Assembly (NCBI GenBank): GCA_035627515.1
Contig: DASPLQ010000012.1
Location: 327,269 to 391,268, forward strand
DNA from: Vitreimonas sp.
Lineage (GTDB): Bacteria; Patescibacteriota; Microgenomatia; UBA1400; PJMF01
Length of the DNA: 64,000 nucleotides
Direction of reading: 5' to 3'
The stretch's first letter is position 1; each line of letters starts with the position of its first letter. The notes beneath the pieces were generated by a model. It ran no database searches and was not told the DNA's origin. It saw only the letters and a program-made list of their open reading frames with translations. Positions 447-32,400 of this stretch are shown here, in pieces. The translations under genes and the position numbers were made by a program.

Positions 447-2255
447 TTACATTTGGTCTACGGTTTGAATTCCCAGTAACCCTAAGCCATGCTGAAGGAT
501 CATGCTCACCGCTTGGGTCAAGGCCAACCTGAAGTAAACCTGGTTTGTAACCTGGTCAGTGGTGATATCTTTGGGCAGAATGATCTCATGGTTATAAAAG
601 GTGTTATACGTTTGCGCTAAATTAAAGAGATACGTCGCCAAATGATGCGGAGCATACTCATCAGCGGCCTTTTCCACTATCTCAGAATAGATATAGATAT
701 TTCTTAAGATATCTTTTTCTGTCGGTGCCAACTCGTAACTCTCGCCCAATTGCATCACATTATTAAATAATGAATCTTTATCTATATTAATAGCTTTTTC
801 TGCCTTACTTAAAACGCTCTGAGCACGGACATAGGTATATTGAAGATAGGGGCCTGAATTGCCTTGAATGTTAGTGATTTCGTCAAAATCAAAGGCAATA
901 TCCTTGGCAGACTCACGCCGTAGATCATTCCATTTGACAGCACCCACTGCGATTTTCCAGAGGCTTTGCTCATCCAGCGGTGTTTTAGCCTGGGCTTGGA
1001 CTCGATTAAAGGCTTCTTGCAACACGTCTTCTAACCAAATCACATTCCCCTTCCGAGTGGACATCTTGCCATCTTTAAAACGGTACATACCATGCTTAAC
1101 ATGGATGCGTTGCCCAGGCTGGTACCAACCCGCCAGCTGCTCAGCCGCAAATAATTGTTGGAAATACAGCGCTTGCTCTCCCCCAACTTCATTGACAATC
1201 AAGATATCGTGTCCATAGTGGTGCAAACGGAAATAGTCAGTCGCTAAATCGCGAGTCGCGTATAAGGTCGCACCATCTTTTTTCATCACCATTAGGGGTG
1301 GGTACTGTTCATTGGGGAAGAAAATTAACTTGGCTCCCTCACTTTCTTTAATTAAACCTTTAGCTTCTAGCTCCGCAATGACGGGCGCCATCTTGTCTTC
1401 AAAAAAAGACTCACCATACCCTTTGCCTTCGTTCTCAGTAAAATTCACATCCAACAACTTATAAATGCGCTTAAATTCCTTCCACGACCACTCAATACAT
1501 TTATGCCATAATCGCCGAGCTTCCTCGTCCCCTGCCTCTAATTTTTTAAACCAAGCCCGCCCTTCATCCTCTAACGCCGGATTTTTCTCGGCTTCCTCAT
1601 GGAATTTGACGTAAAGGGCAACGAGGTCTTTGACTGGCTGAGAAGAATTGTCTAAGGCTGCTTCGTCGCCCCAGGTCTTAATCGCGTAAATTTGCTTCCC
1701 AAACTGTGTGCCCCAATCACCAAGATGATTATCTTTGTAGACTGTCCAGCCCACCGCAGACATTAAATTGGCTACCGCATCACCAATGATCGTGGATCGC
1801 AAATGACCAATCGTAAACGGCTTAGCAATATTAGGTGAGGAATACTCTACAATCGCTTTCTTGCCTTCATTTACCTGCTCAACAATCTCACCTCGTTTTT
1901 CGATCACTCGGCCCATTTCAGCCATCAGAAAGTGTTCAGAAAGGTGAAAATTAATAAAGCCAGGACCGGCTACGGTGACAGTAGTGACTAAGCTCGGCTC
2001 TGAACTTGCTTCCAACTGGTGCTGAATAGACTCTTTGATCGCTTCAGCTAATTGGCGCGGATTTTTATACTGAGGAGTGGCGTCACCAACCGGGAGCTGA
2101 GCTAGTTGCCCGATGCTGACCATCGCCACATTGCTCGCATAATCGCCATGGGTAGGATCGGCGGGGTGTTCTAAATGAATCGTAGCCGGAACAGGCAAAG
2201 TCAGATCGGTGAGTGCTTGTGTGATCAGCGTCGTTAAGTAGGTAGTAATCTTCAT
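447..2255 (-). CDS. argS: arginine--tRNA ligase (class I aaRS)
   Basis: Translation has the ArgS-type HIGH region (SSPNIAKPFTIGHLRSTIIGDAV) and the C-terminal anticodon-binding domain; length ~600 aa. Start taken at internal ATG 2255 (MKITTYL...), which has a GGAGG Shine-Dalgarno 5-10 nt upstream. The ORF-track start at 2297 is probably too long. Confidence 0.9.
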   Translation of the reverse strand: MKITTYLTTLITQALTDLTLPVPATIHLEHPADPTHGDYASNVAMVSIGQLAQLPVGDATPQYKNPRQLAEAIKESIQHQLEASSEPSLVTTVTVAGPGFINFHLSEHFLMAEMGRVIEKRGEIVEQVNEGKKAIVEYSSPNIAKPFTIGHLRSTIIGDAVANLMSAVGWTVYKDNHLGDWGTQFGKQIYAIKTWGDEAALDNSSQPVKDLVALYVKFHEEAEKNPALEDEGRAWFKKLEAGDEEARRLWHKCIEWSWKEFKRIYKLLDVNFTENEGKGYGESFFEDKMAPVIAELEAKGLIKESEGAKLIFFPNEQYPPLMVMKKDGATLYATRDLATDYFRLHHYGHDILIVNEVGGEQALYFQQLFAAEQLAGWYQPGQRIHVKHGMYRFKDGKMSTRKGNVIWLEDVLQEAFNRVQAQAKTPLDEQSLWKIAVGAVKWNDLRRESAKDIAFDFDEITNIQGNSGPYLQYTYVRAQSVLSKAEKAINIDKDSLFNNVMQLGESYELAPTEKDILRNIYIYSEIVEKAADEYAPHHLATYLFNLAQTYNTFYNHEIILPKDITTDQVTNQVYFRLALTQAVSMILQHGLGLLGIQTVDQM

Positions 2256-2299
2256 ATCCTCCTTTATATACAAAAACCCCTCCAGTCTCCAAGTCATAC

Positions 2300-2600
2300 T
2301 TAGAAACTAAAGGGGTTCTTGAGTTAATTGAGCTCAGAACGGTACCACCCTTCTTTTCTTGAATGTTACCACTCAAGACTTTTTATCCGGCGCTGTGCGC
2401 GGGACTACAGCGATGATGGGCTGTTCCCAAACTAGATTATCCCTAGTTAGCGTTCTTAGTGATCTAAGATCCCTTGGTGCGAACAAGGTCTGGACGCTTA
2501 GTAATTAGTATACCAAGGTCGTCAATAATAGGTGAGCACATTTATTTTCCGAAATAAATCCGAATTTAGCCTGGATTAAATGAGTAATTTATGTGTTCGA
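2300..2600 (-). promoter_or_regulatory. T-box riboswitch-like leader upstream of argS
   Basis: Minus-strand RNA contains AAGAAGGGUGGUACCGUUCUGAGCUC (plus 2341-2352 ggtaccaccctt). This matches the conserved T-box sequence AGGGUGGNACCG. It overlaps a terminator hairpin (GUUCUGAG...CUCAAGAAC, plus 2315-2340) followed by CCCCUUUAGUUUC. A GC hairpin (gcgcacagcgc, plus ~2390-2402) sits where Stem III is expected. A longer helix (CCUUGGU...ACCAAGG, plus 2474-2520) is followed by AAGAACGCUAAC, which carries Arg codons AGA/CGC where a specifier loop would be. Confidence 0.5.
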
Positions 2601-3121
2601 TGAATTCAGCCTCTTAGTATTAAAAACAAGATTTATATGACTAATATTTTGTACTCAAAAAGAGGCATCTGCCAGGTTATCTTCGCATTTAATTCGGAAA
2701 AATTGTTTCTCTACCCCAATGGATGACTTATAGTGTGAGTACCGACAGTAAATATGCCACCTTAGCGCTCAGAGTGTATGACAATCTGCTGTTGGAGTCA
2801 CTAAAAGACCGGTTGATGCCACCTAACGCGACTAGCTAAGTAAGCATTTTCTCGCTCGAAAATAACGTCTAGTGATTCGTTACTTGCCCCAACTGAGTAG
2901 CTATTCACTCGATATAAAGGCCCCTAATACTCATTAAATGTGCGTGTAACCAACTACTCACCTCCAGCTATTTGTGCCGCTTATTTTCATTACTCAAATT
3001 GCTAGTAGGTTGATCGCTGCTTTATTTCGTATTTTATTCGCCTTATGTCTTAACTGCCACTTGCAGCCACTTTAAAAATATGAAAAAGTAAAAAGCGATG
3101 TTCTTTAACAGATAAAACCCG

Positions 3122-3146
3122 TAAAAAACTGTGTTGTTTACACAGT
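3122..3146 (-). terminator. intrinsic terminator downstream of comEC
   Basis: Plus strand 3128-3146 actgtg-ttgttta-cacagt forms a 6-bp stem with a 7-nt loop. It is preceded on plus by AAAAAA (3123-3128), giving a U-tract after the hairpin on the minus strand. It lies 33 nt past the comEC stop. Confidence 0.5.
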
Positions 3147-3178
3147 GCTTACTTATTTAAGTGCCTAGTTAGTAGTCA

Positions 3179-4159
3179 TTAAGTATCTGACTGCGATCGC
3201 TGAGTCTCAATCCAATACTTTTCTCCATCACTTATTACTTCAACTTCTCCCTGTTGATCAGTTCTCCAGGTTACTGACCCAATAGCTTCTAAATTTTCTA
3301 AAATACTCTGGTGAGGATGACCATATCGATTGTTTTGACCGCAACTTATAATCGAATTTTCGGGTCGAATCTGTTCTAAAAAAGCTGGTGTTGAGCTAGT
3401 TTTTGATCCATGGTGCCCTACTTTTAGGATATCTATATCTGTTGTCATTCCTGTGGACTGGAGTGCTTCCTCCCCGACCATTTCAAGATCAGCTGTTAAC
3501 AATACTTTAATGTTTTTTATAGTTAATAAAAACACGATTGATCCGTCATTATATCTTTCTTCATCCCCTAGTTGCTTTTTGAGTACGTCCAATAACTGTG
3601 CTTCGGGAAAATCAGGTGAAAAAAGCTTTCGAAAATGGTCTACTGAGCTCACTTCTGCCCCTTCTACTTGAGGAGATACAACTGTTAAAGCAGTATAGGG
3701 ATTTAACCTCGCTTGATGGCCTAAAAACGGAGTTTCTACTCGCATGCTTTCTCTTTGTACTTCACTCGTGATTTTAGAACGAAAACTAACAAATTCATTT
3801 GTAGTTTTTACTTGATTAGTCAACCAAAATTTATTCACTTTATATGCATCCAAAACGTCATCAATACCCCCGATGTGATCGGCATCAGCGTGCGTAGCCA
3901 CCACTAGTTCTAACGTTCTATCCCAAAAGGGCATATTTTCTTCGAGGCAGTTTTTGACCTTGTTATCTACTCCTGCATCAATTAGTACTTGAGTAAAACG
4001 ATAGGAAATAAGAGTTGCGTCCCCTTGGCCTACGTCACAAAATACCAGATGTACATATGAATCTGGCCAGCTTTTCCAAACCACAGCGCCTAAACATACA
4101 CTGCAGAAAGTAATCAATAATAATCCATACCAGAGGAAAGCAGGTTGTTTAAACATCAA
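3179..4159 (-). CDS. comEC: ComEC/Rec2 C-terminal half: TM helix plus metallo-beta-lactamase domain
   Basis: N-terminal TM helix, then the MBL signature (VFCDVGQGDATLI ... HADADHIGG ... VGHHGSKTSS). TTG/ATG start at 4159/4156. Overlaps the upstream ORF by 11 nt in a different frame. Confidence 0.8.
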   Translation of the reverse strand: MMFKQPAFLWYGLLLITFCSVCLGAVVWKSWPDSYVHLVFCDVGQGDATLISYRFTQVLIDAGVDNKVKNCLEENMPFWDRTLELVVATHADADHIGGIDDVLDAYKVNKFWLTNQVKTTNEFVSFRSKITSEVQRESMRVETPFLGHQARLNPYTALTVVSPQVEGAEVSSVDHFRKLFSPDFPEAQLLDVLKKQLGDEERYNDGSIVFLLTIKNIKVLLTADLEMVGEEALQSTGMTTDIDILKVGHHGSKTSSTPAFLEQIRPENSIISCGQNNRYGHPHQSILENLEAIGSVTWRTDQQGEVEVISDGEKYWIETQRSQSDT

Positions 4160-5228
4160 AAAGTGAGAGCCGGGCTCTTCTCCTCTGGCGGCCTCGATAG
4201 TAACAATATCCCAGCCCGCAAATGATGTACCAGGCTAAAAAATGCCAAATGCCAAACCCATTTATTATCCATAAACTGCCCTCATATCTCCCAAGCCAAG
4301 TAGCTCCTCCTATAAAGAGTTGTAATCCTAGCCACAAAGGAATAAAAACGAGCCAATGACAGATAATCTCCACGATTGGAACGAAGTTAATAAAACTGAG
4401 GAGCATAAAGACTAAGCCGCCAATTGTTAACAGCGGAGTTAGCCATAGTAATACAGTATTGCTCACTAAACTTAAGGTGCTCAGTTCGCCAAAGTGATAA
4501 AGCACAATCGGGAGGGTCAACATTTGTGCGGCACAGGTTGTGACAAAGGCTTCGCTAAAAATAGAGCGAAGATATGAGCTCGTAGATAATAATGAAGGTG
4601 ACAATGTCTGGCCGGTACTAAGAGCCGTATACCACTGAGCACTGACTTCATTTTTGTTATTCGCCAGCGAAGTAAAAAAAATGATCCCCACACATGCTGC
4701 TGCTGAAAGTTGGTAGGAAATACTACTTATCGTTGTCCAATCACTAAGTGCTCCTACTAGTGTCACTAGTCCCAATGCCCGTAGGGGTGAGTATTGGCGT
4801 AATAAGAGTTGTCTATTAAGTAAGCTAATGATTGCCATAGTGCTAGCCCGAATAATTGAAGGTGTGAGATCAGCCATAAGGGCATAAACAGTCACTACCC
4901 CACACAAGATAACAAGCTCATAAAACCGTTCAAAACGGGTAGTAACCATACTACCGAGACTAACCATTAGGCCCACATTGAAGCCTGAAGCCGACGTCAC
5001 ATGCTGCATCCCAATAACTTTTAATGAGTGATTCAACTCTGTTTCATCTTCTCCGCTTCCGCCAAAAACCATACCATGTAAGAGCTGAGATTCAGTCGTA
5101 GAAAAGTAGCCTATAAGCGACTTGAGAAAGCGGTTTTTGATGGCGATAAGGGGATATTCGCAAATGGTTTTCCAATCATTTACCAAAAGTGTTATTAAAT
5201 ATGTATGGTTTAATAATTGATTTATCAT
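4149..5228 (-). CDS. comEC: ComEC/Rec2 N-terminal half: polytopic membrane competence domain
   Basis: Multi-TM protein with a Competence-domain-like core (GMQHVTSASGFNVGLMVSLG). Ends 11 nt inside the next ORF, which carries the MBL domain. Confidence 0.75.
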   Translation of the reverse strand: MINQLLNHTYLITLLVNDWKTICEYPLIAIKNRFLKSLIGYFSTTESQLLHGMVFGGSGEDETELNHSLKVIGMQHVTSASGFNVGLMVSLGSMVTTRFERFYELVILCGVVTVYALMADLTPSIIRASTMAIISLLNRQLLLRQYSPLRALGLVTLVGALSDWTTISSISYQLSAAACVGIIFFTSLANNKNEVSAQWYTALSTGQTLSPSLLSTSSYLRSIFSEAFVTTCAAQMLTLPIVLYHFGELSTLSLVSNTVLLWLTPLLTIGGLVFMLLSFINFVPIVEIICHWLVFIPLWLGLQLFIGGATWLGRYEGSLWIINGFGIWHFLAWYIICGLGYCYYRGRQRRRARLSLFDV

Positions 5229-7995: not shown

Positions 7996-10497
7996 CTACC
8001 CGACGACTAGGTTCACAATCTTCCCTGGCACATAAATTTCTTTCTTGAGCGTACCTTGAGACAGCCACTGTTGGACTTTGGCTTCAGCCTTGGCTTTGGC
8101 TAAGATAGCGGCTTGGTCTTGGGCTTCGGTCGGGGTAACGCTCAACTGTTCACGAACTTTGCCATTCACCTGCACCGGAATAATCACTTGCTCTTCTTGA
8201 GCTAGAGCTTCGTCCCAAGTTGGCCAACTGCCGGTGTGAACTGAAACTTGTGGTTGATCGCTCGTACTATTCACAGTTTGCCACAACTCCTCTGCCATAA
8301 ATGGCGCAAACGGAGCCAACATCTGGATCACCATTTTAATTTCATCTGATGATAACGCGCCTTGACCAGCACTTTTATTGGCTTCTTCCCAGACATTCAT
8401 AAACTCCATCATCGAGGCAATAGCGGTGTTGAACTTGAGAGCTGGGATGTCTTGTGTCACTTTACGAATCGTTTGGTGTAACTTGCGGCGAGCGCGAGTC
8501 GCGGTTTCACCCTCGGCTGAGGTAGAGAGTGGTTGAGCGATAGCCTCACTCACTTGTTTATGCACCCGGCTTAAAAAGCGATAGACACCCGCCACGGCCG
8601 TGACACTCCAGGGCTTGTCGGCTTCTAACGGTCCCATGAACATTTCATAGACCCGCAGCGTATCCGCCCCAAATTTCTCGATGACTTCGTCGGGGTTAAT
8701 GACATTACCCTTACTCTTACTCATCTTCTTGCCGTCTGGACCCATGATCATGCCTTGATGGCGCATCTTCATAAATGGCTCATTGAAACTCAGATACCCT
8801 TCATCTCGCAAGAACTTAGTGAAAAAGCGCGAGTATAACAAGTGCAACACAATGTGCTCCGGCCCAATCATATACAAATCAACTGGCAACCATTTCTTAG
8901 CCTGGTCCTTATCCATGAAGGTTTTTTCATTACGCGCACTGACATAGCGCAAGAAGTACCAGCTTGAATCCACAAACGTGTCCATAGTGTCAAACTCTGG
9001 GCGCCAGCCTTTACCGTACAGTTTTTCGGTTCGCTCGATGAATTCTTTCGAGTGGGTCAGCGGCGACTCGCCGGTGGGCTTAAACTCCACGTCGGTAGGG
9101 AGTGTCCATGGCAAGTGTTCTTCCTTGACTGGGTGCGGCTGACCTTCAGGATCATACACAATGGGGATTGGTGCGCCCCAGTAGCGTTGGCGGGAAATCA
9201 ACCAATCGCGAAGTTTGTAGGTGGTTTGCCACTCACCCCATCCCTGTTTAATCATCCAATCGGCCATGTTTTTCTTACCTTTACCCCAAGCGTCCTGCCC
9301 ATCAAACTGCCCTGAGTTGACCAATACACCTTCGCCTTCGAAAGATATCTCGCTAGCAGCGACTTTTTTGTCAATTTCTTTGTCAGAATATGAAACTACT
9401 TGACGCACAGGTAAGTCAAACTTTTTGGCAAACGCAAAATCTCGTTCATCGTGAGCAGGCACGCCCATCACAATCGCGGTCCCGACACCCATCAAAACGT
9501 AATCAGCAATAAATAAGGGCACAGCTTCACCATTGACGGGGTTAACAGCATGTAAACCAGTATCGACACCAGTTTTATCTTTTTGACCAATTTTGCGTTC
9601 TTCTTCAGTTTTATGTTTGGCGGCTTCTAAGTAGTCAGACACAGCTTGCTGACGATCACTTGGCACTAAACCCGTCAATCCTAGTGATTCAAATTTTTCT
9701 GGAGCAATAACTACAAAGGTCGTTCCAAATACCGTTTCCCAAAACTTAGTCCAGATTGTTAAATCGATGGCTTTTTCTTGGAGCTGGAAGGTAATATTCA
9801 GGCCTTGAGCTTTTCCAATCCAATGAAGTTGATGTTGCTTGGTCGCCTCTGGCCAATCGACTTCATTCAAGCCACTAATTAATTCATCCTTATATTGAGT
9901 GATTTTAAAGTACCATTGCTCGAGGTCTTTCTGGACGACAGCGGTACCACAGCGTTCACAAGTACCATCCACGACTTGTTCGTTAGCCAACACCGTCTGG
10001 CAGGATGGGCACCAATTGACCATCCCCTTCCCGCGGTAGGCTAAACCTTTGTTATACATTTGGATAAAGAGCCATTGAGTCCATTGGTAATAATCAGGAT
10101 GGCTGGTAGCTAATTCATTAGCCCAGTCATAAGAAACACCAATGCGTTTGATTTGGCGACGAAAGGTATTAATGGCGCTCTTAGTAGTTTCAGCGGGATG
10201 GATACCTGTTTTAATGGCGTAATTTTCAGCCGGCAGTCCAAAGGCGTCCCACCCGACTGGGAAAAAGACTTGTTTACCATTCATCCGGTAATAACGAGCC
10301 ATGATATCCAGCGCCGTTTTTGATTCGACGTGACCAACATGTAAACCAGATCCAGAAGGATACGCAAAAGCAAATAACAAGTACATTTTGTCCTCAGGAC
10401 TGCCTGCCTGGTTTTCACTCTGCTGGAAAAGACCTTTTTCCTCCCACCATGCTTGCCAGCGTTCTTCGATTGCGGTTGGATTGTAGGTTGTACTCAT
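7996..10497 (-). CDS. leuS: leucine--tRNA ligase
   Basis: 833 aa with HVGHVESKTALD (HIGH), KMSKSKGN (KMSKS), a CP1 editing region and a Zn-like CxxC segment (CPSCQ...CERCG). AAGGAG Shine-Dalgarno 6 nt upstream of the ATG. Confidence 0.92.
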   Translation of the reverse strand: MSTTYNPTAIEERWQAWWEEKGLFQQSENQAGSPEDKMYLLFAFAYPSGSGLHVGHVESKTALDIMARYYRMNGKQVFFPVGWDAFGLPAENYAIKTGIHPAETTKSAINTFRRQIKRIGVSYDWANELATSHPDYYQWTQWLFIQMYNKGLAYRGKGMVNWCPSCQTVLANEQVVDGTCERCGTAVVQKDLEQWYFKITQYKDELISGLNEVDWPEATKQHQLHWIGKAQGLNITFQLQEKAIDLTIWTKFWETVFGTTFVVIAPEKFESLGLTGLVPSDRQQAVSDYLEAAKHKTEEERKIGQKDKTGVDTGLHAVNPVNGEAVPLFIADYVLMGVGTAIVMGVPAHDERDFAFAKKFDLPVRQVVSYSDKEIDKKVAASEISFEGEGVLVNSGQFDGQDAWGKGKKNMADWMIKQGWGEWQTTYKLRDWLISRQRYWGAPIPIVYDPEGQPHPVKEEHLPWTLPTDVEFKPTGESPLTHSKEFIERTEKLYGKGWRPEFDTMDTFVDSSWYFLRYVSARNEKTFMDKDQAKKWLPVDLYMIGPEHIVLHLLYSRFFTKFLRDEGYLSFNEPFMKMRHQGMIMGPDGKKMSKSKGNVINPDEVIEKFGADTLRVYEMFMGPLEADKPWSVTAVAGVYRFLSRVHKQVSEAIAQPLSTSAEGETATRARRKLHQTIRKVTQDIPALKFNTAIASMMEFMNVWEEANKSAGQGALSSDEIKMVIQMLAPFAPFMAEELWQTVNSTSDQPQVSVHTGSWPTWDEALAQEEQVIIPVQVNGKVREQLSVTPTEAQDQAAILAKAKAEAKVQQWLSQGTLKKEIYVPGKIVNLVVG

Positions 10498-10540: not shown

Positions 10541-10588
10541 AAAACAAAAAATCCCCTAACGGGGAATTGCACACGACTCACTTCCCCT
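10541..10588 (-). promoter_or_regulatory. leuS 5' leader with mutually exclusive hairpins (terminator/antiterminator-like)
   Basis: Minus-strand RNA reads GGGGAA-N14-UUCCCC-GUUA-GGGGA-UUUUUUGUUUU, ending 40 nt before the leuS AUG. The central UUCCCC can pair with either flanking G-run, and the downstream option is followed by a U-tract. No T-box consensus seen here. Confidence 0.3.
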
Positions 10589-10682
10589 AGGCACTAGCGG
10601 CTAAGAAGGAGAAGTTGAGTTGGGTAATGAGACTTCATAACTTGAGTAGTATACCACTAAAATTGTGTGATATAACACGCAT

Positions 10683-20461: not shown

Positions 20462-23400
20462 ATGTCTGCCCCCCTCACTGCCCCTACGAGCTTGCCTGCC
20501 CTTTGGCTGTCTTTTGTCCAAAAACAGGCCGTGAGCGAAAGCGACCAACACTTGCTCATCGGTTATGTATCTAAATTTGCCAGTAGTTTAGCCACCCCCG
20601 CCGATTGGTCTGTTGAATCTCTTACCGAGTTCTTAGCAAAAAACAATTTCAGTGAGTTATCTTTGACACAGCGTCGTACGTGGCTGAGCGAGTTTGTCCG
20701 CTCAATTTCTTCACGCCAGATTGGCGTCACCCTCTACCTTTTCGAATTAGCACTCATCAAAGGTAACTGCTCAAAAGCAACCGTCCGGAATTATCGCAGT
20801 GATATCAATCAATTTTTTGATTTCTGCCAAACTACCGAAGTCTCCGAAGCACTCACCAAACCCAAACTCCAGGCTTTTGAACAGCACCAAAGCCTGAAAG
20901 GTCTTCAACCTTCCAGTATCAAACGCAAAGTTTCTAGTATCACCCAGTTTGGCCAATGGCTGCACAAGGCTGGCTACCCCATCGAACTGGTGGTTGAGAA
21001 CCTTACCGCCGCAGAAGTTATTTCTACTCCGGTAGCAGAGGAAAAAATTGAACACGAAATTTCCTCAAGTCAACTTGAGACAGATAAATTAGCTGAGTTA
21101 TCCCTGCGCGAAGAAGTCGCTGATCTGAAAGCTCAAGTCAAAAGACAAGCCCGTGCCTGGTTCTTACCCTACTTGACCTTAGCCACCCTGATCTTGTTCT
21201 TTGCTGGTCTGGCAGTGTTTGGGTATCGCCAGTTCTTCCGCGACGTGCCTACCCCCTTGGCCTACCCCAGTAGTCCAGTCCGTGCTGATCGAGTGCTGTC
21301 CTTCCAAGGCCGCCTAACTGACACCGCTCAAAACCCGATCACCACCGCCACTAACATGACCTTCAAGCTCTTCGATTCTGGCCCTTCCATCGTGAGCGGC
21401 ACTGAGCTGTGGTCATCCGGCACTTGTAGCGTTACTCCTGATCAAGACGGTATCTTCAACGCCGGGCTTGGTGACGACTGTGGCAGCGAGATCCCTGATG
21501 ACGTTTTCACTGAGAACGCCAATGTCTGGCTCCAAGTCCAGGTGGCAGCTGAAACCCTGTCACCTCGCCAACCGATCCGGACCGTGGCCTACGCCATTAA
21601 CTCTGAGACGGTTCAGGGCTATCCTGTCACCGCCTCCGGATCAGCTACCGTCAATACCTTGCTGACTATGGACTCATCGGGTAACGTGATTTTGGGCGAA
21701 ACCTCACCGAAGCTCAAATCAGTTTCGGGTACTTTTACCCTAGAAGGCCAGACTATTAAGCTTCAAACCACTTCGGGTGGTAATGGCAATATCATCATCG
21801 ATGCCGATGGTACTGGCGGCACCTTCATCAACGATTACCTGAAGGCTCCAGGAGCTACCCTCAGTGCCACTTACGCTGGGGGCGTGCCATTGACGGTCCT
21901 CGGTGGACCAAGTGGTATGGGGAACTTAGCTAACTTCCAAAACAATGGTGGCACCAATTTACTGACCGTCGATGCCTCTGGTAATCTGAGTACAATTGGT
22001 GGGATTGGTCATTCTTTCGGAAACGTGGGTGGTAACCTGACTTTGAACTCAGCTGGGACCATCGAACTGCTTGATGCTACTAACGTCACCGGCGCGTTGT
22101 CAGCTACTGGCAACATCAACTCTTCCGGCGGCAGCTTACAAACGGGCGGCACTTCCCGCATCGACAACTCCGGAAACTTAACCAACATCGGCACCACCCA
22201 ACTCAACGGCATCACCTACACTTGGCCAGGTTCTCAAAACTCAAATTATATTCTTCAAACCAACGGCTCCGGCACTCTCACCTGGGCTGACCCAGCTGCC
22301 TTAGCTGGTGCCTCCACCTTCTGGCTTCAAAACAACGGCGCCCTCTACCCCAAGAACTCGACTGTCGATTTCTTACTCGGCGGCCAAGCTACCTCAAGTG
22401 CCAAGTTCGCTGTCTTGAACTTGAACTCTGGCACGCCAACTGCCACCTTGTCTGGAACCACCACTGGTGCTGCTTTGTACATGACTGGTGAAGGAACGTT
22501 GGCCACCACCCAGAATCGCTCACTGTTGCTTAACCCGACTGGTGGCTTTGTGGGAATTGGGACCAGCAATCCAGCGGCAAAACTGGATGTAGTCGACACT
22601 TTACGAGTAACTTCACTTGATGGCACTAACTGGAGCTCAATAAACACCACTAACGCTGGAAATAGCCGGTGGTCGTATGAGGGAAGCAGCACCTATTTAG
22701 ATTTGAACCAAAACGGGGCGATTACTGCTGGATCCAGATTTATTGTCGGCACAGCTGGAGGCACCGGCGATACCGGTGATTTGGCAGCGGGTGCAAACGG
22801 TGGCTCCCGAATAGCCTGGTTAAGAAGAGTTTCCACGAATAGACCAACTTTGGATTTTTACAACTTGAGCAACGTCCTGGTAAACAGTATTTCTGCCAAT
22901 ACAACTGATCCCACCTACTTCACCGGTGCCCTGTTTGGTATCGGGACTTCAACTCCTACCGCCTTCACTCACATCAACGGCGGCTATGGGGCTAACGATG
23001 CTTTGACTGTCAATCAAACTTTGGGTGGCAACATCTTGAGTGCGTCTTCCTCAGGGACCACACGCTTAATCCTCACCAACGGTGGACAATTGCAAGCTTC
23101 AGCAGGGACTTCTTCTGCTCCAGGCTATTCCTTCCTGAATGCCTCTGGACTTGGTTTCTACTTGACCGGGGGTAATGAAGTTTCCTTGAGTCCAGGTGGC
23201 CACGCTAATCGCCAGATCAGATTTGGTGGCGTTTCAGGCAGTAATTGGGCTGGTACCTACTTCACAAACGATAACTTTGCCACTCACGCTGGTATTGGGC
23301 GAGCCCAAGTCAGCACCACAATTAATGACGGCTTATTCATTGGTGACATTGGGGCTACTGCTACTTTACGAGGTCTAGCTATGTCCTATCTGGCTTTGGG

Positions 23401-26400
23401 CACCCAAGCTGGCAACACTGACGTCTATCTCCAACGCGACGCGGCTCAAACTTTTGGCCAACGTAATAGCACGAATGCTCAGCAATTTAATATTTACAAC
23501 ACGTACACCTCAGCTACCAACTACGAGCGAGCTGAGTTTAACTGGATTGCTAACTCCAATGTCTTCACCATTCAAACTGGTAGAGGTTCGTTGGGTGGCT
23601 CTACTCGTGACATTGCTTTACAACCGACAAGCGGAAAAGTTGGAATCGGTACGATTGCTCCGACAGCGCTACTTCATATCAACGGCGGCTATGGTGCCAA
23701 TGATGCGTTGACTGTCAATCAAACTTTGAGTGGTAATATCTTCAGTGCGAGTGCAAGCGGAACGACCAGAATGGTGCTGACGAACTCGGGTAACCTGGGT
23801 ATTGGAACTACTACTCCAAATCAGCAACTTGAAATTCAGGGTACTACTACCCCAGGCGGAGCTCTCCGTTTATCAAGCGCTGATACCACAGTCTTTACTG
23901 ACGAACATATTGGTCAAATTGATTTCTATTCTAACGATGCCTCGCTTAATGGAGTCGGAGTGGGAGCCTTTGTCAAAGCTATCGCCGAAGATAATGGCAC
24001 CCTGTATGGCTTATCATTTGGAACTGGTCAAGCTTTAGCAGGCGCTACAGAAAAACTTCGGCTGACCAATGATGGCAACTTAGGCATAATGGCTCAAGGG
24101 GACCTCCGCTTGTACGATACAGACTCAAGCAATTACTTGGCTTTCCAAGCTCCAAGTACTGTCGGCAGTAACTTAACCTACACCTTCCCTGGCAGCGTCA
24201 CCAACGGCTACGTCTTACAAACTGATGGTTCCGGTACGCTCACTTGGGCTGATCCAGCTGTTCTGGCTGGCGCCACTGACTACTGGGCTTCCAGCTTAGG
24301 CACTCTTTACCCTAAGAACTCTACGCTCGACTTCTTGTTGGGTGGGCAGGCTACGAGTAGTGCCAAGTTTGCCGTGTTGAATTTAAACTCTGGTACACCA
24401 ACTGCCACTCTCTCTGGCACCACCACCGGGGCTGCCTTGTACATGACTGGTGAAGGCACATTGGCAACCACCCGAAATCGCTCGCTGCTACTTAACCCTA
24501 CTGGCGGCAATGTCGGAATTGGGACAAGCAACCCTAGTTATAAACTTGAGGTAAATGGTCAGACAGCAATTACGCCAACTACTGGAACAGTTTTAAAACT
24601 TGGGGCAAATGTTGATTCATCTACAGCCACCCCGGTTAGTATCGATATGGGGGGAACATATAGCAATACAGCCGGACAAAACCCTAAAATCATGTTATAT
24701 AAAGCCGGGGTATTAGAATTGGGCTTTGGTTTCTCACTGAATGAGTTTGATTATATCGCGCATTCAGCGGGCACACATGTGTTTTGGTCTGGTACCACTA
24801 GAGATGCTAGAATCTATACCGATGGAGTCAGAGTACCCTCAACTAGTGGGTATATCTTCACCAGTGATACTGGTCTAGCTACACCTGATACCGGCATTGC
24901 TCGATCATCGGCAGGAGTTATTAAACTCACAAATGGTAGCTCAGGAGATGGTTCATTATATGCCGGCGGCAGCGCCAATAACTACTTTGCTGGCAACGTT
25001 GGCATCGGTACCACCGGCCCTGACGCCAAGCTCGACTCTCTCTCCACCACCGGTGAACAACTTCGCTTAACGTACACTGATGGCTCAGCTTACACAGGCT
25101 TCACTACTAACTCAGGTGGTGACTTAACCATCGTTCCATCTGGCGGCGATGTAAACATCACAGGAAACTTAGCGTTAACGGGCACTACTACTCTCAACTC
25201 TCAAACCTACACTTGGCCAGGTTCACAAACTGCTAACTACGTCTTACAAACCAATGGTTCGGGAACCTTGAGTTGGGCTGACCCAACTTCATTCGGTTTA
25301 TGGCGCCAAAGTTTGGGTGCCATCTCGCCTATCAACAACACCTTTGATTTATTAGTTGGTTCTAACGCTACCAGCTCAGCCAAGTTTGCCGTCTTGAATG
25401 TGAACAACGGTACGCCAGTGGCTTCCGTGTCATCTGGTGTTAGTGGCACAGCTCTGTCAATGTCTGCAGACGGCACACTGACTACTAGTAGTAACCGCCC
25501 ATTAGCTATCAATCCAACTGGCGGTAACGTGGGCATCGGGACAAGTACTCCAGGGGACAAATTAACTGTTCAAGATGGCAACCTTCGTTTACAACGTTCT
25601 GATACTACCAATACTCGGCTCACTAATTATTGGGGTGGCAGTACTTCATATGGAATGAGTATCGAATCTAATATTAGTTCTGCAACTGCATATTCCAATA
25701 GCTATGGCATTAGATTAGGCACCATTTTTAGTAGTTTGCCTACTTCAGGAACTTATGATCAAGTAAGAATTATTGACAGCTTTGCACCTACCTCTGGAAC
25801 AGCAATTAGTAATGCCTTCACCGTTATGCCAACCATCAACCAAACTGGTGGAGCCAATGGCATTTCTCGAGGTATTTATATTAATCCTACGTTAACTGCT
25901 GCTGCCGATTTTAGAGGTCTGGAAATTGCTAATAATAGTGGCTATGGGATTTATCAAAGTGGAGCCAGTGCAACAAATTACTTCAATGGCACCAGCGGTT
26001 TTGGCACCACCGGACCTGATGCTAAGATTGACTCCCTCTCCACCACCGGTGAACAACTTCGCTTAACCTATACTGATGGCTCAGCTTATACAGGCTTCAC
26101 TACTAGTAGTGGTGGTGACTTAACTGTCGCTCCTTCTGGCAGTGATACTAACATCACCGGCAACCTGGATGTTTCCGGCACCTTCGCCAGTGGCACCGCC
26201 AACGCCCTTACTATAGATGCATCAGGTAATGTGGTTACCACCGGCACTCTCACCGCCAACACCGATGAAACCATCAACGGTATCGATATCAACGCCGGCG
26301 CTGTCTCTGATATCACCACCTTAGCTGCCTCTGGTCAGATTACCTTCTCTACCTTCACTACTAACGGCGGTATCTTATATACCAATGGTTCCGGTGTCTT

Positions 26401-29400
26401 AGCTCAAACCAGTGTCGGCTCTTCTGGCGAGTGTCTCCAATCCAACGGTGGCGGCGCTCCAACCTGGGGTTCGTGTAACGCTACTGCCGTCAATTACTGG
26501 CGCTTAACCAATGGCGCCTTCTCCCCAGTCAATGACACAGCTGATGTGTTGATTGGCTCCACTGCTACTAGTAGTGCAAAATTTGCCTTCTTAAATGTGA
26601 ACAGTGGCACGCCAACTGCTTCAGTCTCTGCTGGCACCACCGGCGCCACCTACATCACTGCTGCCGGGTCATTACAAACCACCGCCCGCCAATCCCTCAA
26701 CTTAGGCGGCACCACCACTGGTAACACTAATGTTCTCAACACTGCTGGCACTGCCATCGCTACCTTTGATGCTACTAATAGTCGGCTTGGTTTAGGTACC
26801 ACCGCTCCTGCTAGTAAATTAGAGGTGGTTGGTGATGATATTCGCGTCAGTAGTGAAGTTGATGCCAATGATGAACAAGGAGCTGGCATTGAGTTCTATA
26901 ACACTCTAGCCCATGCCAATGCTCAAAAAGTCGTGGCTAGTATTACTCCTTCCCGCATGCATAACACTTTCGGTGGCGGTGCGTTACTCTTTAACACAAC
27001 TAATGATGGCGTGGGCGGCACTCCCACTACGCGAATGATTATTGGTACTTCTGGTAACGTGGGTATTGGTGCTACTTCCGATAGCTCTATCAACACTCGC
27101 TCCAAACTAAATGTCTTTGTGGGCAGTGGTGACGGAGTCAGAATTATTAATAGTTCCGGATCAGGTGTGGACTGGTTACTGACTCCAGGTGTGGGCGGCG
27201 TAGACCACGATCGCTTTGGCCTCTACAATGCCGATAGTTCCACTTTCATCTGGAATGCCAAACATACTGGTGACATGGGTATTGGTACTACCGGTCAAGA
27301 TGCCCGCCTTGATGTCTTAACCACCTCTGGCGAACAACTCCGCTTAACCTACACTGATGGTACTGTTTATACCGGCTTTACTACTAATAGTGGTGGAGAC
27401 TTAACCATCGTGCCATCTGGCGGTGACGTCAACATTACTGGTAACTTGGCTTTGACCGGTACCACCACTCTCAATTCACAAACCTACACTTGGCCAGGTT
27501 CACAAACTGCTAACTACGTCCTGCAAACTAATGGTAGTGGTACCTTAAGCTGGACTAACCCTCAAAACTTTGGTCTCTGGAGACAATCACTCGGCGCTCT
27601 CTCCCCAATCAATGACACTATGGATCTCTTGGTTGGTTCCAATGCCTCTAGTTCAGCCAAGTTTGCGGTGTTAAACGTCAACTCAGGCACACCAGTGGCT
27701 TCGATTTCTGCTAACTCTGGAAATATTAATACCTATCTAACAGGTAACGGCACATTAGCGACCACTAATCGTCAAAGTTTAACGATTGGTAACTCAAGCA
27801 CCTATAACACCACTGGTAATGTTTTAATTAATTCTAATGGCCAAGGCTCCGTGGGTATTGGCACTACTACTCCTTCAGAAGAGCTGCATGTGGTGGGCGA
27901 TATTTTAGCTGGAACTAGTTTCAAAATTGGTAGCACCAATACACAAATTGATAAATATGGCGGTTGGTTCAGAATTAATACCACTGGTAGTTATGGTTTA
28001 GTGATTGATAATGCTGCTGCTAGTTTGTCATATAACAGTAATTTAAATAGCACTGGCTTAGCGGGTCTCAAAGTCACTCATGCTGATACTGCTGCTTTCG
28101 CCAATATCGGAGCTTTGAATGCAGTTATTACCAATAACGCCTATATTTCAGGACGAGCCGGTGTCGGCACTACTTCACCTACTGCTGTTTTACACGTCAG
28201 TGGTGGATATGGTGCCAACGATGCGTTCACGGTCAATCAAACTAACTCAGGTAATATCTTTAGTGCGTCTGCTTCTGGCACTACTCGTTTGACGTTAAGT
28301 AACGCTGGCAACTTAATCTTCAATCAAGCTAGTACCATTCAAACCTCCACTGGTAACTTAACTTTGGATAGTACTGGCGGCACCATCGAGTTAATCGACA
28401 ACACCAACATCACTGGCAACTTGGACGTGTCAGGTACCTTTGCCGCTGGCACTGCTGATGCTCTCACCATCGATGCCTCTGGTAACGTCGTCACCTCTGG
28501 CATTTTGACTGCAGCCACCAATGAAACCATCAATGGCATCGATATTAACGCGGGTGCGGTCAGTGACATTACCACCTTAGATGCTTCAAGTACTGTCACC
28601 TTCTCCTCCTTCACCACTGATGGTGGCGTCCTCTACACCAATGGTTCGGGTGTTTTGGCTCAAACGGCGGTTGGCTCATCTGGTCAATGTCTGCAATCAA
28701 ATGGTGGCGGCGCTCCCACTTGGGGTAGTTGTACTGGTGGCGGTAGCTTCAGTAACTGGCGCTTAACTAATGGTGCCTTCTCACCTGTCAATGACACCGC
28801 TGATGTCTTGATCGGTAGCAATGCCACCTCAAGTGCCAAGTTTGCTTTCATGAATGTGAATTCTGGGACGCCAACGGCTTCTATCTCGGCTGGAACTACT
28901 GGTGCCACTTATATCACTGCTGATGGCAAACTCCAAACTACAGCTCGCCAAAACTTGAGTCTCGGTGGCACCACCACTGGTAATACTCAAGTCTTGAACA
29001 CCGCTGGCAGCGCCTTCGCTACCTTTGATGCCACCAACAGTCGCTTAGGCATTGGCACTGCTGCTCCTCTAGCTAAACTTTCTGTGGGCCCAGGAGTAGG
29101 TGAAAAACTTCATCTGTATGATGATGGAGCGGGCACCATCTATGGTATGGGTATTCAAGCTAGCTTGATGCAACTCTATGCCCCTGCTGGCTCTCGCGTT
29201 GGAATCGGTAATGGCAGTAGCGGCAGCTTTACGGAAGCTTTATCTGTAATTGATGGCAAAGTTGGTATTGGCAATACCAGTCCCAACGCTCCATTATCAT
29301 TTGCCAACGCTGTTGGTGAAAAAGTTGTGTTGTTTGACGGTGGTTCAGCTGCTACTCGCATTGGTTCTGCTATCCAGACTAATGACTTCCAACAATATGT

Positions 29401-32400
29401 GGGAGCTTCAACTAATAACTTTACCTTCCGCCAAGGTGGCCAAAATGGGACTGAGTTAATGAGATTATTAGGCACAGGTAACTTAGGAGTGGGAACCACT
29501 GGACCAGATGCTCGTATCGATTCCCTCGCTACCTCTGGTGAACAACTCCGCTTAACGTACACTGATGGCTCTGCCTACACCGGATTCACTACCAATAGTG
29601 GTGGAGACTTAACCATCGTGCCATCTGGCGGCGATGTTAACATCACGGGTAACTTGAGCTTAACTGGCACCACTACCTTCAACTCACAAACCTACACTTG
29701 GCCAGGTTCACAAACTGCTAACTACGTCCTGCAAACCAATGGTACAGGCACCTTGAGTTGGGCTGATCCTACTCAATTTGGTCTGTGGCGACAATCTTTG
29801 GGTGCCATCTCACCGATCAATAACACCTTCGATTTACTAGTCGGTTCCAATGCTACAAGTAGTGCCAAGTTTGCAGTCTTAAATGTGAACTCAGGCACAC
29901 CAACCGCCTCAGTTTCAGCCGGAACCTCTGGAGCTGCTTACCTGACTGCGGCTGGTGCGTTACAAACCACCGCTCGCCAAACCTTAAGTCTAGGTGGCTC
30001 CACCACTGGCAACACGAATGTGCTCAATACTGCTGGCACTGCCTTCACTACCTTTGACGCTACTAACAGTCGTGTGGGCATTGGCACCGCAGCACCTGGG
30101 TTCAACCTCGAAATCGCTGATGCTACTGATCCACAAATGGTGGTGACTGATACTACCAATACCGTGAGAACTCGAGTTCAATCACAAAATACGGTCGGTG
30201 TTCTTGGTACTTCTTCCAATCACGCCTTGCGCATCCAAACTGGATCAACTAACGCCATTTCTATTGATACTAGCCAATTAGTAGGTATTGGCACCACTGC
30301 ACCAGATGCCAGACTTGATTCACTTTCTACCTCCGGTGAGCAGCTCCGCTTAACCTACACCGATGGTTCAGTTTATACGGGCTTTACCACCAACTCGAGT
30401 GGTGACTTAACAGTTGCTCCTTCTGGCAGTGATGCTAACATCACCGGTAACCTCGACGTCTCTGGTACCTTCGCCTCTGGCACTGCCGATGCCCTTACTA
30501 TCGACGCCTCTGGTAACTTAGTTACTACTGGTACCTTAACTGCTAACACCAACGAAACCATTAATGGTATCGATATCAACGCTGGCGCTGTCAGTGACAT
30601 CACTACCCTCTCTGCCTCGAGTACTATCACCTTCTCAAGTTTCACCACCAACGGTGGTGTGCTCTACACCAATGGCTCTGGCGTCTTGGCACAAACTGCT
30701 GTGGGTAGTTCGGGAGAGTGTTTGAAATCAGCTGGTGCTGGCGCTCCAACCTGGGGTAGCTGTACAGCTGGGGCAGGTTCCAGTAACTGGCGCTTAACCA
30801 ATGGTGCCTTCTCACCTATCAACGACACCGCTGACGTCTTGATCGGAAGTACGGCTACTTCGAGTGCTAAGTTTGCCTTCATCAACGTCAATTCTGGTAC
30901 ACCAACTGCCTCTATCTCCGCTGGCACTTCTGGTGCTACCTACATCGCCGCTTCTGGTTTGATCCAAACCACCGCTAACCAAAACTTAACCATCGGCGGT
31001 AACACCACTGGTAACATCACCTTGGCTCCGCTCAATGGCGCTGGCACAGTCAATGTCACCGGCAACGCCGACGTCTCTGGCACGTTCGCTTCTGGCACTG
31101 GCAACGCCTTCACCATCGATGCCACTGGGAACACTGTCACTTCTGGTACTGTCACTGCTGCTACTAACGAAACTATCAACGGAGTCGATATTAACAATGG
31201 CGCCATCAGTGACGTCACTACCCTCAGTGCCTCAAGTACCATCAACACGACAGGCGGTACCATCCAAACTAACTCTACGAGTCGCATCGATAACTCGGGT
31301 AACTTGACTAACATTGGCACCACTCAATTGAACGGTCAAACCTACACTTGGCCAGGTTCTATTACTGCTGGTGGCGTCTTACAAACCTCAGGTGGTGGCG
31401 CCTTGAGTTGGGCTGATCCAGCAGGCTTCGGTCAATGGCGCTATGGCAATGGTGCCATCTCCCCAATCAACAATACTTACGATCTCTTAGTTGGTTCCAA
31501 TGCTTCCAGCTCAGCCAAGTTTGCTGTCTTGAACGTCAACTCTGGCACACCTACAGCCTCAGTCTCAGCCGGTACAGCTGGCGGTGCCTATATCACTGCC
31601 GATGGTAAATTAGCCACTACTGCCAAACAAACCTTAACGCTCGGTGACACCAATACTGGCAATGTAGTCATCCCTAGCTCCAACTTAGGCATTGGTAACA
31701 CTCAACCTTTCGCTCAATTACACTTGACCGCTACTGGAGAAAGCGGCGTTGCCCGAGGCTTACAAGTTAATGCCAACGATTTAAATACTAATGCTACCAT
31801 TACCAAATATGGCAACAATGGTGGCCTTGATCTCCGCACAGCTTGGACTGGTAACAGTAATATTACTTCTGGCATTACTCTGGGTGAAGGCAATGCCTGG
31901 AGTCCTGACATTCGCTTCTACACCGCCTTCCAAGGTGCGACCCGCAGTGAGCGAATGAGAATTACTGATATTGGTAATATTGGTATCGGAACCACTACAC
32001 CTACTTCCTTGTTCCACGTTAACGGTGGTTACGCCAACAACGCTCTCGCCACCTTCAATCAACTTAACTCCGGTGATATCCTGACCGCTTCAGCATCTGG
32101 TGCGACTCGCATGCGCTTGACCAACAACGGCAACATGATCATTGGTCCTTCCACAGCGGCTATTAACTACAACATGATCTCTCAAAGTGGCACGGCTTCC
32201 TTTGCTAGCACCAACAACGACCTCTATATCGAGGATATCCTCGAGGTCGGCGGCAGTATCGTGTTGGGTGGCAACCAATTGATGGCTAATGCCCTCTGGC
32301 AAAATAATGGTAATGTTTACTCACCAATTGGTGCTTACGGCAGCGTGGCTGACCTGGCTATCGGTGGCACTGCGACCTCGAGTGCTAAGTTCCAAATCTT

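Follow-up and report, generated by a model that had tools for sequence, protein, structure and literature searches.

The DNA considered here is a stretch of 64,000 nucleotides labelled Vitreimonas sp., referred to below as the window, and the element under study is the leader of argS, the gene for arginine--tRNA ligase, on its minus strand. Judging from the sequence and from its relatives, this leader (approximately 2500..2256, minus) is very probably a transcription-attenuating T-box riboswitch with an "ultrashort" decoding arm. T-boxes are the textbook example of an RNA that reads another RNA. An earlier reading of the window, made without database searches and called here the sequence-only reading, had proposed a T-box-type leader on argS that senses uncharged tRNA. 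For this lineage, which lies outside the classical T-box phyla, the proposal is borne out by the comparative evidence, whereas several structural details that came with it are revised below.

T-Box Core Motif and Folding of the Leader

The motif AGGGTGGTACCG, which the sequence-only reading had recognized as the core of a T-box antiterminator, is indeed present at 2351..2340 (minus) and is its single match in the window. With up to one mismatch, 0.09 chance matches are expected, and at least one turned up in 8 of 100 shuffled windows. PMC11297988 quotes a T-box consensus, AGGGUGGNACCGCG, with which the window sequence AGGGUGGUACCGUU agrees at 12 of 14 positions. Directly 3' of AGGGTGGTACCG lies a terminator-like hairpin (2318..2274, minus; 20 pairs counted) followed by TTTTT, and its 5' arm overlaps the 3' half of the motif-bearing helix. 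The overlap of the core with a terminator-type hairpin and a pyrimidine-rich tract had also been noted from the letters alone, and it corresponds to the shared 3' strands of the antiterminator.

The leader (2520..2256, minus) folds far better than its dinucleotide shuffles (z = -7.2; none of 200 shuffles as good), and no structured RNA is indicated in the upstream noncoding 466 nt (2660..3125; z = 0.15). In a scan of the window for bulged UGGNAYY helices, the argS-leader helix was the only one outside the coding sequence of large open reading frames (ORFs); the other T-box-like bulged helices all lie inside such coding sequence and were rejected. Leader-peptide attenuation of argS was also considered and rejected, as the leader contains neither a start codon nor an Arg-rich small ORF.

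Homologous Leaders

The DNA upstream of argS was compared at 27 loci whose ArgS is 46-66% identical to that of the window. The leader is present at seven of them, namely, the window, L001, L013, L014, L100, L221, and L222, and the ArgS proteins of the six leader-bearing relatives are 56-60% identical to that of the window. L221 and L222 were chosen by N-terminal extensions that resemble a translated terminator (...GGKRGFF...), a heuristic that was right twice. GUGGUA is invariant in all seven leaders. A metagenome search with an alignment of ArgS (at least 80 loci) gave no further leader among the 12 listed loci for which upstream sequence was present and the identity reached 46% or more. In viral contigs, a loosely defined pattern that combined the Stem I loop with the T-box core returned chance matches without an antiterminator or terminator.

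Antiterminator and Terminator

The antiterminator consists of two helices, A1 and A2, on either side of a 7-nt bulge, which reads UGGUACC in six leaders and UGGUAUC in one. The eight bulge-proximal A1/A2 pairs are 96-100% paired across the leaders, and seven of the eight change on both sides. In each of the seven leaders, the 3' strand of A1 and part of the 3' strand of A2 are shared with a terminator hairpin that is followed by five to eight U. The predicted stability in the window is -8.7 kcal/mol for the antiterminator versus -26.3 kcal/mol for the terminator; over the seven leaders, the predicted energies range from -5.9 to -10.9 kcal/mol for the antiterminators and from -17 to -28.8 kcal/mol for the terminators.

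The Shine-Dalgarno (SD) sequence and the ATG are placed 8-20 nt or more past the terminator hairpin. In the window, the SD begins 8 nt past the U-run; in L001, L014, L100, L221, and L222, some 45-70 nt separate the end of the hairpin from the start codon. The SD AAGGAGG is unpaired in the predicted folds. A terminator with a U-run, together with an SD and ATG beyond the hairpin, points to transcription control and not to SD sequestration.

Decoding Half of the Leader

A probable extended -10 promoter element, TGGTATACT, precedes the leader, and the transcript is predicted to start a few bases before the basal helix P1. The element occurs twice in the window, before the argS leader and before the leader of leuS, and elements of the TGnTAYAMT type stand at the equivalent place in L011, L013, and L014. 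P1 is maintained by changes on both sides: it pairs GCGU with ACGC in five of the seven leaders, ACGC with GCGU in L014, and CUAC with GUAG in L013.

P1 leads into a base resembling a kink-turn (K-turn). Its bulge measures 2-3 nt in all seven leaders, the 5' GA is present in six, and the 3' position is GA in four and AA in three. The L013 version is textbook, CUAC-AUU-GA...GA-GUAG. On this base stands Stem I, which in all seven leaders is a hairpin of 5 bp closed by a 7-nt loop of the form N-U-CGC-R-N; the loops are UUCGCAC, UUCGCGC, GUCGCGA, and CUCGCAA. The helices diverge in sequence and yet stay complementary (CCUUG/CAAGG, CCAAG/CUUGG, CAGUG/CACUG, CCUAA/UUAGG, CUUAG/CUAAG, and (C)CGGC/GCCG(C)). 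A pattern search for "NA, 5 bp, N-TCGC-R-N, 5 bp, NA" on both strands of 836 kb returned the seven leaders and three chance matches.

The proposed specifier is the Arg codon CGC of this loop. CGC followed by A or G is found in all seven leaders, each upstream of argS, so that the codon fits the gene; besides CGC, the overlapping UCG is the only other invariant loop triplet. T-boxes usually have C as the third specifier base, and the codon is normally followed by a purine that stacks under it (PMC7583486). Between the 3' GA and the 3' strand of P1, in the non-bulged strand of the K-turn-like base, six of the seven leaders carry an inserted hairpin of 16 to approximately 60 nt, absent in L013, by which the base of Stem I becomes a three-way junction.

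Middle of the Leader

The Stem II position is occupied across the leaders by a hairpin of 3-6 bp with an A-rich loop of 6-8 nt; outside the window, the loops read GGAAAU, GGAAAAU, CAAAAU, and ACUAAAUA. The following Stem IIA carries a sequence resembling the F-box. It reads CCGUCA in L001 and L014, CCAUCA in the window, and UCGUUA in L100, L221, and L222, and no clear F-box is seen in L013. CCGUCA is the F-box of N. farcinica (PMC7583486). The loop of Stem IIA can pair over 3-6 bp with the linker, forming a possible Stem IIB pseudoknot with one compensatory change (GUGAA/UUCAC in L100 and L221 versus GAUGAA/UUCAUC in L222); the cases of 3-4 bp could be due to chance. In the window, this pairing competes with the G+C-rich linker hairpin. 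The linker of the other six leaders is variable in length and sequence.

AAG or GAG stands directly 5' of Stem III in six of the seven leaders, L014 being the exception; the window has AAAAG, and the 3' flank is A-rich. RAG and RRRxG-Stem III-AA motifs have been described (PMC11297988, PMC7583486).

Covariation across the Seven Leaders

Pairing was scored in a gapless composite alignment, registered by hand, whose columns came from P1, Stem I and its loop, Stems II and III, A1, the bulge, and A2, with AAAA standing in for the variable loops. In this alignment, 98.9% of the cells are paired and 23 of the 25 pairs change on both sides, a result that none of 500 shuffles reaches. When the partners are slid by 1-3 columns, the pairing drops to 39-51%. 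The registers of Stem I, anchored by the invariant loop, and of A1 and A2, anchored by the invariant bulge, are not free choices. It is on these three helices that the structural argument mainly rests. A consensus computed by RNAalifold on a raw MAFFT alignment of the antiterminators was meaningless and was discarded: MAFFT misregistered these discriminators, misaligning the 3' arms, as the length of the A2 loops ranges from 6 to 19 nt. The features of the leader are collected in Table 1.

Table 1: Features of the argS leader and gene in the window (positions of the window; a few parts are given in the order of the transcript).
Feature	Positions	Strand	Remarks
Extended -10 promoter element TGGTATACT (probable, from sequence)	2507..2515	minus	predicted transcript start a few bases before P1
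P1, 5' strand AGCGU	2494..2498	minus	pairs with 2449..2453
K-turn-like element, 5' side: 3-nt bulge CCA, then GA	2489..2493	minus	
Stem I, 5 bp CCUUG/CAAGG with 7-nt loop UUCGCAC	2472..2488	minus	
Specifier CGC (Arg codon; proposed), then purine A2478	2479..2481	minus	in the loop of Stem I
K-turn-like motif, 3' GA	2470..2471	minus	
Inserted hairpin UCUUAG-AUCA-CUAAGA	2454..2469	minus	between 3' GA and 3' strand of P1
P1, 3' strand ACGCU	2449..2453	minus	pairs with AGCGU 2498..2494
Stem II, short hairpin CUAG-GGAUAAU-CUAG	2432..2446	minus	A-rich loop
Stem IIA hairpin UGGG-AACAG-CCCA and F-box-like CCAUCA (2419..2414)	2414..2429	minus	
Stem IIB strand CUGU (possible)	2407..2410	minus	could pair with ACAG of the Stem IIA loop to form a pseudoknot
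G+C-rich linker hairpin CGCUGU-AGUCCCGCGC-ACAGCG	2391..2412	minus	
AAG ("RAG" purines) and Stem III, UCUUGA-GUGGUAACAU-UCAAGA	2357..2381	minus	Stem III hairpin 2378..2357, directly 5' of the T-box
Antiterminator: A1 (AGGG/CCCU), 7-nt bulge UGGUACC (2347..2341), A2 (GUUCUGAG.../...CUCAAGAAC)	2311..2351	minus	
Intrinsic terminator: hairpin 2320..2277, then UUUUU (2276..2272)	2272..2320	minus	5' arm formed by the 3' strands of A2 and A1
Shine-Dalgarno sequence AAGGAGG	2264..2258	minus	outside the terminator hairpin, as is the argS ATG
argS (arginine--tRNA ligase, 602 aa; regulated gene)	447..2255	minus	ATG 2255..2253

Alternative Explanations and Points against a T-Box

The architecture could be read in other ways. 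That a chance 12-mer happens to lie beside an ordinary terminator has next to no probability: near matches to the motif do arise in shuffled sequence at the frequency given above and Rfam reports no match, but six other contigs carry the motif in an equivalent setting upstream of argS, which effectively excludes chance, and the whole architecture recurs there with compensatory changes. It is also very unlikely that the leader is a canonical class I T-box with a long Stem I, an internal specifier loop containing AGA or CGC, and the G+C-rich hairpin as Stem III, which is how the sequence-only reading had drawn it. AGA-A does lie just 5' of ACGC in the window, as well as in L001 and L100, and the G+C-rich hairpin CGCUGU...ACAGCG (2412..2391) is stable. 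However, AGA (approximately 2456..2454 in the window) is kept in three of the seven leaders, its site reading UGG, AAA, or ACU elsewhere and the segment being missing from L013, and the adjoining ACGC is a strand of P1, paired with GCGU. There is no long helix before the specifier: CGC (2481..2479) sits in the loop that closes a 5-bp hairpin, the leaders lack a distal Stem I, an AG bulge, and T-loops, and the Rfam alignment of L001 deletes 76 Stem I positions. The G+C-rich hairpin belongs to the variable linker and is not conserved, whereas an AAG-preceded hairpin adjoins the 5' side of the T-box in six of the seven leaders, so that the equivalent of Stem III is 2378..2357.

An attenuator that senses something other than tRNA is improbable to a similar extent. 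In one version, arginyl-tRNA synthetase (ArgRS) would regulate its own gene through a mimic of the anticodon arm, as in E. coli thrS, and Stem I has the size of such an arm, with 5 bp and a 7-nt loop in which position 2 is U and position 6 a purine; in another, a constitutive or Rho-assisted terminator would lie beside a relic core, and rho is encoded in the window, while the Rfam T-box model fails. C35 is a main identity element by which ArgRS recognizes tRNA-Arg. In the anticodon register, the CGC of the loop would be an Ala anticodon and has no C35. Seven diverged leaders have kept the UGGUAYC bulge, A1 and A2, the F-box, and the AAG-Stem III element under selection, unlike what would be expected of a relic; binding of ArgRS to an anticodon-arm mimic would leave the conservation of this bulge unexplained, and UGGU fits the A73-CCA end of tRNA-Arg. 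A translational T-box that sequesters and releases the SD, with the U-run hairpin incidental, is unlikely, if slightly less so: all ultrashort Stem I T-boxes described to date are translational, and the SD of the window lies close behind the U-run. Against this, the competing hairpin is followed by its U-run in every leader and ends well short of the SD, which the predicted folds leave unpaired.

Several observations weigh against a transcription-attenuating T-box with an ultrashort Stem I. The distribution of the leader is patchy, as it is missing from 20 of the 27 related argS loci, among them the one with the closest ArgS (66%, L011). A long Stem I, a distal AG bulge, and interdigitated T-loops for the tRNA elbow are absent from all seven leaders, while the double T-loop platform that binds the elbow on a long Stem I is regarded in a 2020 review as essential or generally required for transcriptional T-boxes, for kinetic reasons. 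The K-turn of L100 is nonconsensus (CA/AA). No S-turn (GAA/AGUA internal loop) is visible in Stem II of the leaders; Rfam aligns GGAA to the GAA half of this motif, with the AGUA half deleted. For the pseudoknot, support is weak in the window and in L001, L013, and L014. The pair of A2 adjacent to the bulge is G-C in six leaders and A-U in L013 and thus not the conserved G-U that, beside the bulge, serves T-boxes as a steric sensor of the aminoacyl group (PMC7583486). P1, Stem II, and Stem III were placed by eye, so that part of their covariation is there by construction. Furthermore, the cognate tRNA-Arg, with anticodon ICG or GCG, was not seen in the sequence of the window.

To these points the failure of the Rfam model must be added. 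The sequence-only reading had named the lack of a significant covariance-model match as grounds for giving up the T-box, and literally no significant match was obtained. With RF00230 (Rfam 15 cmscan), the window gave no match at the gathering score. At E ≤ 10, neither 1.1 kb around the leader (2150..3250) nor the 244-nt leader alone gave a T-box match; the only matches at this threshold were spurious miRNA and terminator-like models on the terminator hairpin. Among the relatives, RF00230 aligns in the correct place to L001 (19.3 bits, E 0.04) and L100 (18.2 bits); both alignments delete the distal Stem I and score far under the gathering score of 93 bits. The miss is a false negative of the model, which is built around a long Stem I and a complete Stem II.

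Proposed Mechanism and Match to tRNA-Arg

In the mechanism suggested for the T-box, termination would be the default: the terminator hairpin (2320..2277) and its U-run would form, and RNA polymerase would halt before argS. When uncharged tRNA-Arg accumulates, its anticodon would pair with CGC in the terminal loop of Stem I, which stands on the K-turn-like base. The Stem II hairpin and the Stem IIA/B-like element would probably help this codon-anticodon contact. The free A73-CCA 3' end of the tRNA would then pair with UGGU of the antiterminator bulge, a contact that would stabilize the weak A1/A2 helices, withhold the 5' arm of the terminator, and allow readthrough into argS. Charged tRNA-Arg would be unable to make the UGGU contact. 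What the seven leaders show directly is the conserved and covarying sequence elements, the mutually exclusive helices with their predicted energies, and the fit of the specifier to the gene and of UGGU to tRNA-Arg ends of relatives; that the leader binds tRNA, senses its charge, and terminates or reads through accordingly is inferred, as are the parts played by Stem II and the pseudoknot and the isoacceptor that is read.

The sequence-only reading had linked its T-box to an Arg specifier codon and to pairing of UGGU with the 3' end of tRNA-Arg. The codon is conserved as described, and UGGU is complementary to the A73-CCA of two tRNAs of relatives, tRNA-Arg(CCG) in L001 and tRNA-Arg(CCU) in L005; the isoacceptor that reads CGC is not among these, and the tRNA of the genome itself is absent from the window, in which no tRNA gene was found by Rfam 15 at the gathering score. 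The two tRNA-Arg genes (L001, 5619..5693; L005, 6574..6646) lie 1.3-2.2 kb downstream of argS, on the opposite strand.

Significance

The leaders may represent an unrecognized class of T-box common in Patescibacteria, a tentative proposal for which the case is less than even. Such a class would be minimal and terminating, would decode with a 17-nt hairpin the size of an anticodon arm and a short Stem II, and would lack the elbow platform, the S-turn, and the G-U sensor. If so, a nascent RNA would capture tRNA fast and cotranscriptionally without elbow docking. Alternatively, elbow docking would be replaced by a lineage-specific factor, such as the junction hairpin, a K-turn-binding protein, or a slow RNA polymerase. 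One would then further expect this scaffold, with different loop codons, before other aminoacyl-tRNA synthetase genes of these genomes.

A terminating argS T-box with an ultrashort Stem I would break two associations made in reviews, that of a long Stem I with transcription and that of an ultrashort Stem I with the translational ileS leaders of Actinobacteria. It would also extend the T-box family to Patescibacteria, which obtain amino acids from hosts and whose gene regulation is little known. As the standard Rfam model misses this branch, T-box surveys would under-count. The shortest leader, approximately 190 nt from P1 to the U-run (L014), would be an attractive minimal scaffold for engineered tRNA-responsive switches, and the shortest leaders would let one test how much the kinetic control by a T-box needs.

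Gene Context and Lineage

The mechanical ORF call for argS (447..2297) is 14 codons too long and starts within the terminator hairpin; the likely start is the ATG at 2255, with AAGGAGG 5' of it. The product carries the domains Arg_tRNA_synt_N, tRNA-synt_1d, and DALR_1, as annotated on a database protein of 100% identity. Over-extension of argS at its 5' end by ORF and gene callers, which translates the terminator and the U-run, is also observed elsewhere, giving N-termini such as MLLDSFSVGGKRGFFS... (P0015 and P0017) and MGLFCRQ... (P0036).

Vitreimonas is an alphaproteobacterium, yet the named close relatives of the ArgS and LeuS of the window all belong to Patescibacteria, Paceibacterota/Pacebacteria, or Woesebacteria. 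For this reason, the label "Vitreimonas sp." is judged to be wrong, and the window is treated here as part of a Patescibacteria genome on the strength of its protein sequences. Further traits typical of the Candidate Phyla Radiation are ORFs of 4918 and 3713 aa and the adjoining of argS and comEC. The two giant ORFs are adjacent on the plus strand (20462..35218 and 35301..46442) and make up 40% of the window. L001 is labelled "uncultured Pseudomonadales", yet its ArgS is 96% identical to a protein of Candidatus Woesebacteria, and this label also looks wrong.

Upstream of argS, an ORF with a Lactamase_B domain (3179..4159) follows one with a Competence domain (4149..5228), and the pair resembles comEC. 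The Lactamase_B-domain ORF is closely followed by a terminator-like hairpin and T-run at 3128..3146 (minus). With this hairpin behind the comEC-like ORFs, argS appears to have its own promoter, 600 nt downstream.

A conserved A/T-rich module lies upstream of the argS promoters of the clade, whether the T-box is present or not. It is located at approximately 2530..2660 (minus) in the window and was also found in L001, L011, L012, L013, L014, L015, L023, L096, L097, L099, L100, and L221. Where both of its elements were matched, the layout is GAGTACAAA(AT), approximately 80-90 nt, a direct repeat TTCGN-N6-8-TTCGN, approximately 45-70 nt, and the -10 element. The module may be a regulator-binding site or a feature of promoter architecture.

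Another leader in the window belongs to leuS (7996..10497, minus), which is preceded by TGGTATACT at 10656..10648. After this element, an ORF of 14 codons from 10638, MKSHYPTQLLLLSR, contains four consecutive Leu codons (CUU CUC CUU CUU). The helices of the leader overlap as 1:2, 2:3, and 3:4, and the Leu-codon region pairs with AGGGGAAGUGAGU. The antiterminator is GGGGAA/UUCCCC, and the terminator, AAUUCCCC-GUUA-GGGGAUU followed by UUUUUG, extends over 10568..10550. On its sequence, this leader (10546..10656, minus) looks like a classical leucine leader-peptide attenuator. Together with a T-box on argS, it would give two synthetase genes with two attenuation mechanisms in one genome.

Comparison with Known Systems

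The closest structural parallel is the class with ultrashort (US) Stem I, reportedly described by Sherwood et al. in 2015 for ileS of Mycobacterium and Nocardia and represented by the structures 6UFG and 6UFM. In this class, a short helix carries the specifier in its terminal loop without a double T-loop, and all members are translational and control ileS (bioRxiv 10.1101/2023.02.28.530422). The argS leaders share with the US ileS T-boxes the short Stem I helix, here on a K-turn-like base, the specifier in the terminal loop, and the lack of an elbow-binding double T-loop, and the ultrashort Stem I itself is found in each of the seven. They also share a Stem II, a Stem III, and a UGGN bulge, and have a Stem IIA/B-like element with a sequence resembling the F-box of the CCGUCA type. 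Unlike the US T-boxes, which control ileS and bind tRNA-Ile, the present leaders control argS, have the loop codon CGC, and occur in Patescibacteria. In place of the SD sequestrator of a translational switch, they have an intrinsic terminator with a U-run and an SD outside it; moreover, Stem II is a plain short hairpin without an S-turn, and an extra hairpin with a three-way junction is present in six of the seven.

Conversely, the expression platform resembles that of the class I transcriptional T-boxes (RF00230; for example, tyrS and glyQS of B. subtilis), in which a terminator competes with a weak antiterminator of A1, bulge, and A2. The agreement with 12 of 14 T-box positions, the purine after the codon, and the purines at Stem III are likewise shared; the UGGN would pair with the NCCA end of the tRNA, and the base of Stem I resembles a K-turn. 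The discriminator half is that of an ordinary T-box. Unlike class I, the leaders have no long Stem I, no specifier internal loop, and no AG bulge or distal interdigitated T-loops, and A2 has G-C, not G-U. With the argS T-boxes of Firmicutes collected in TBDB, they share the regulated gene and presumably the ligand, uncharged tRNA-Arg. The short-Stem-I model of TBDB was applied to Actinobacteria and to class I hits alone, and with this scope, leaders of the present kind would not have been collected.

In the literature searched, no publication links T-boxes to the Candidate Phyla Radiation or T-box riboswitches to Patescibacteria, and the papers listed by a looser search with lineage names of this radiation did not contain the term. 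Within this scope, the combination of an ultrashort Stem I, tRNA-Arg, and a terminator has not been described before. The argS T-boxes of Firmicutes have a long class I Stem I. Very probably, the argS leader of the window is a T-box by its mechanism and by the homology of its discriminator and F-box, and it stands outside both described classes as these are now defined, with a decoding arm resembling that of the US ileS T-boxes and an expression platform resembling that of class I.

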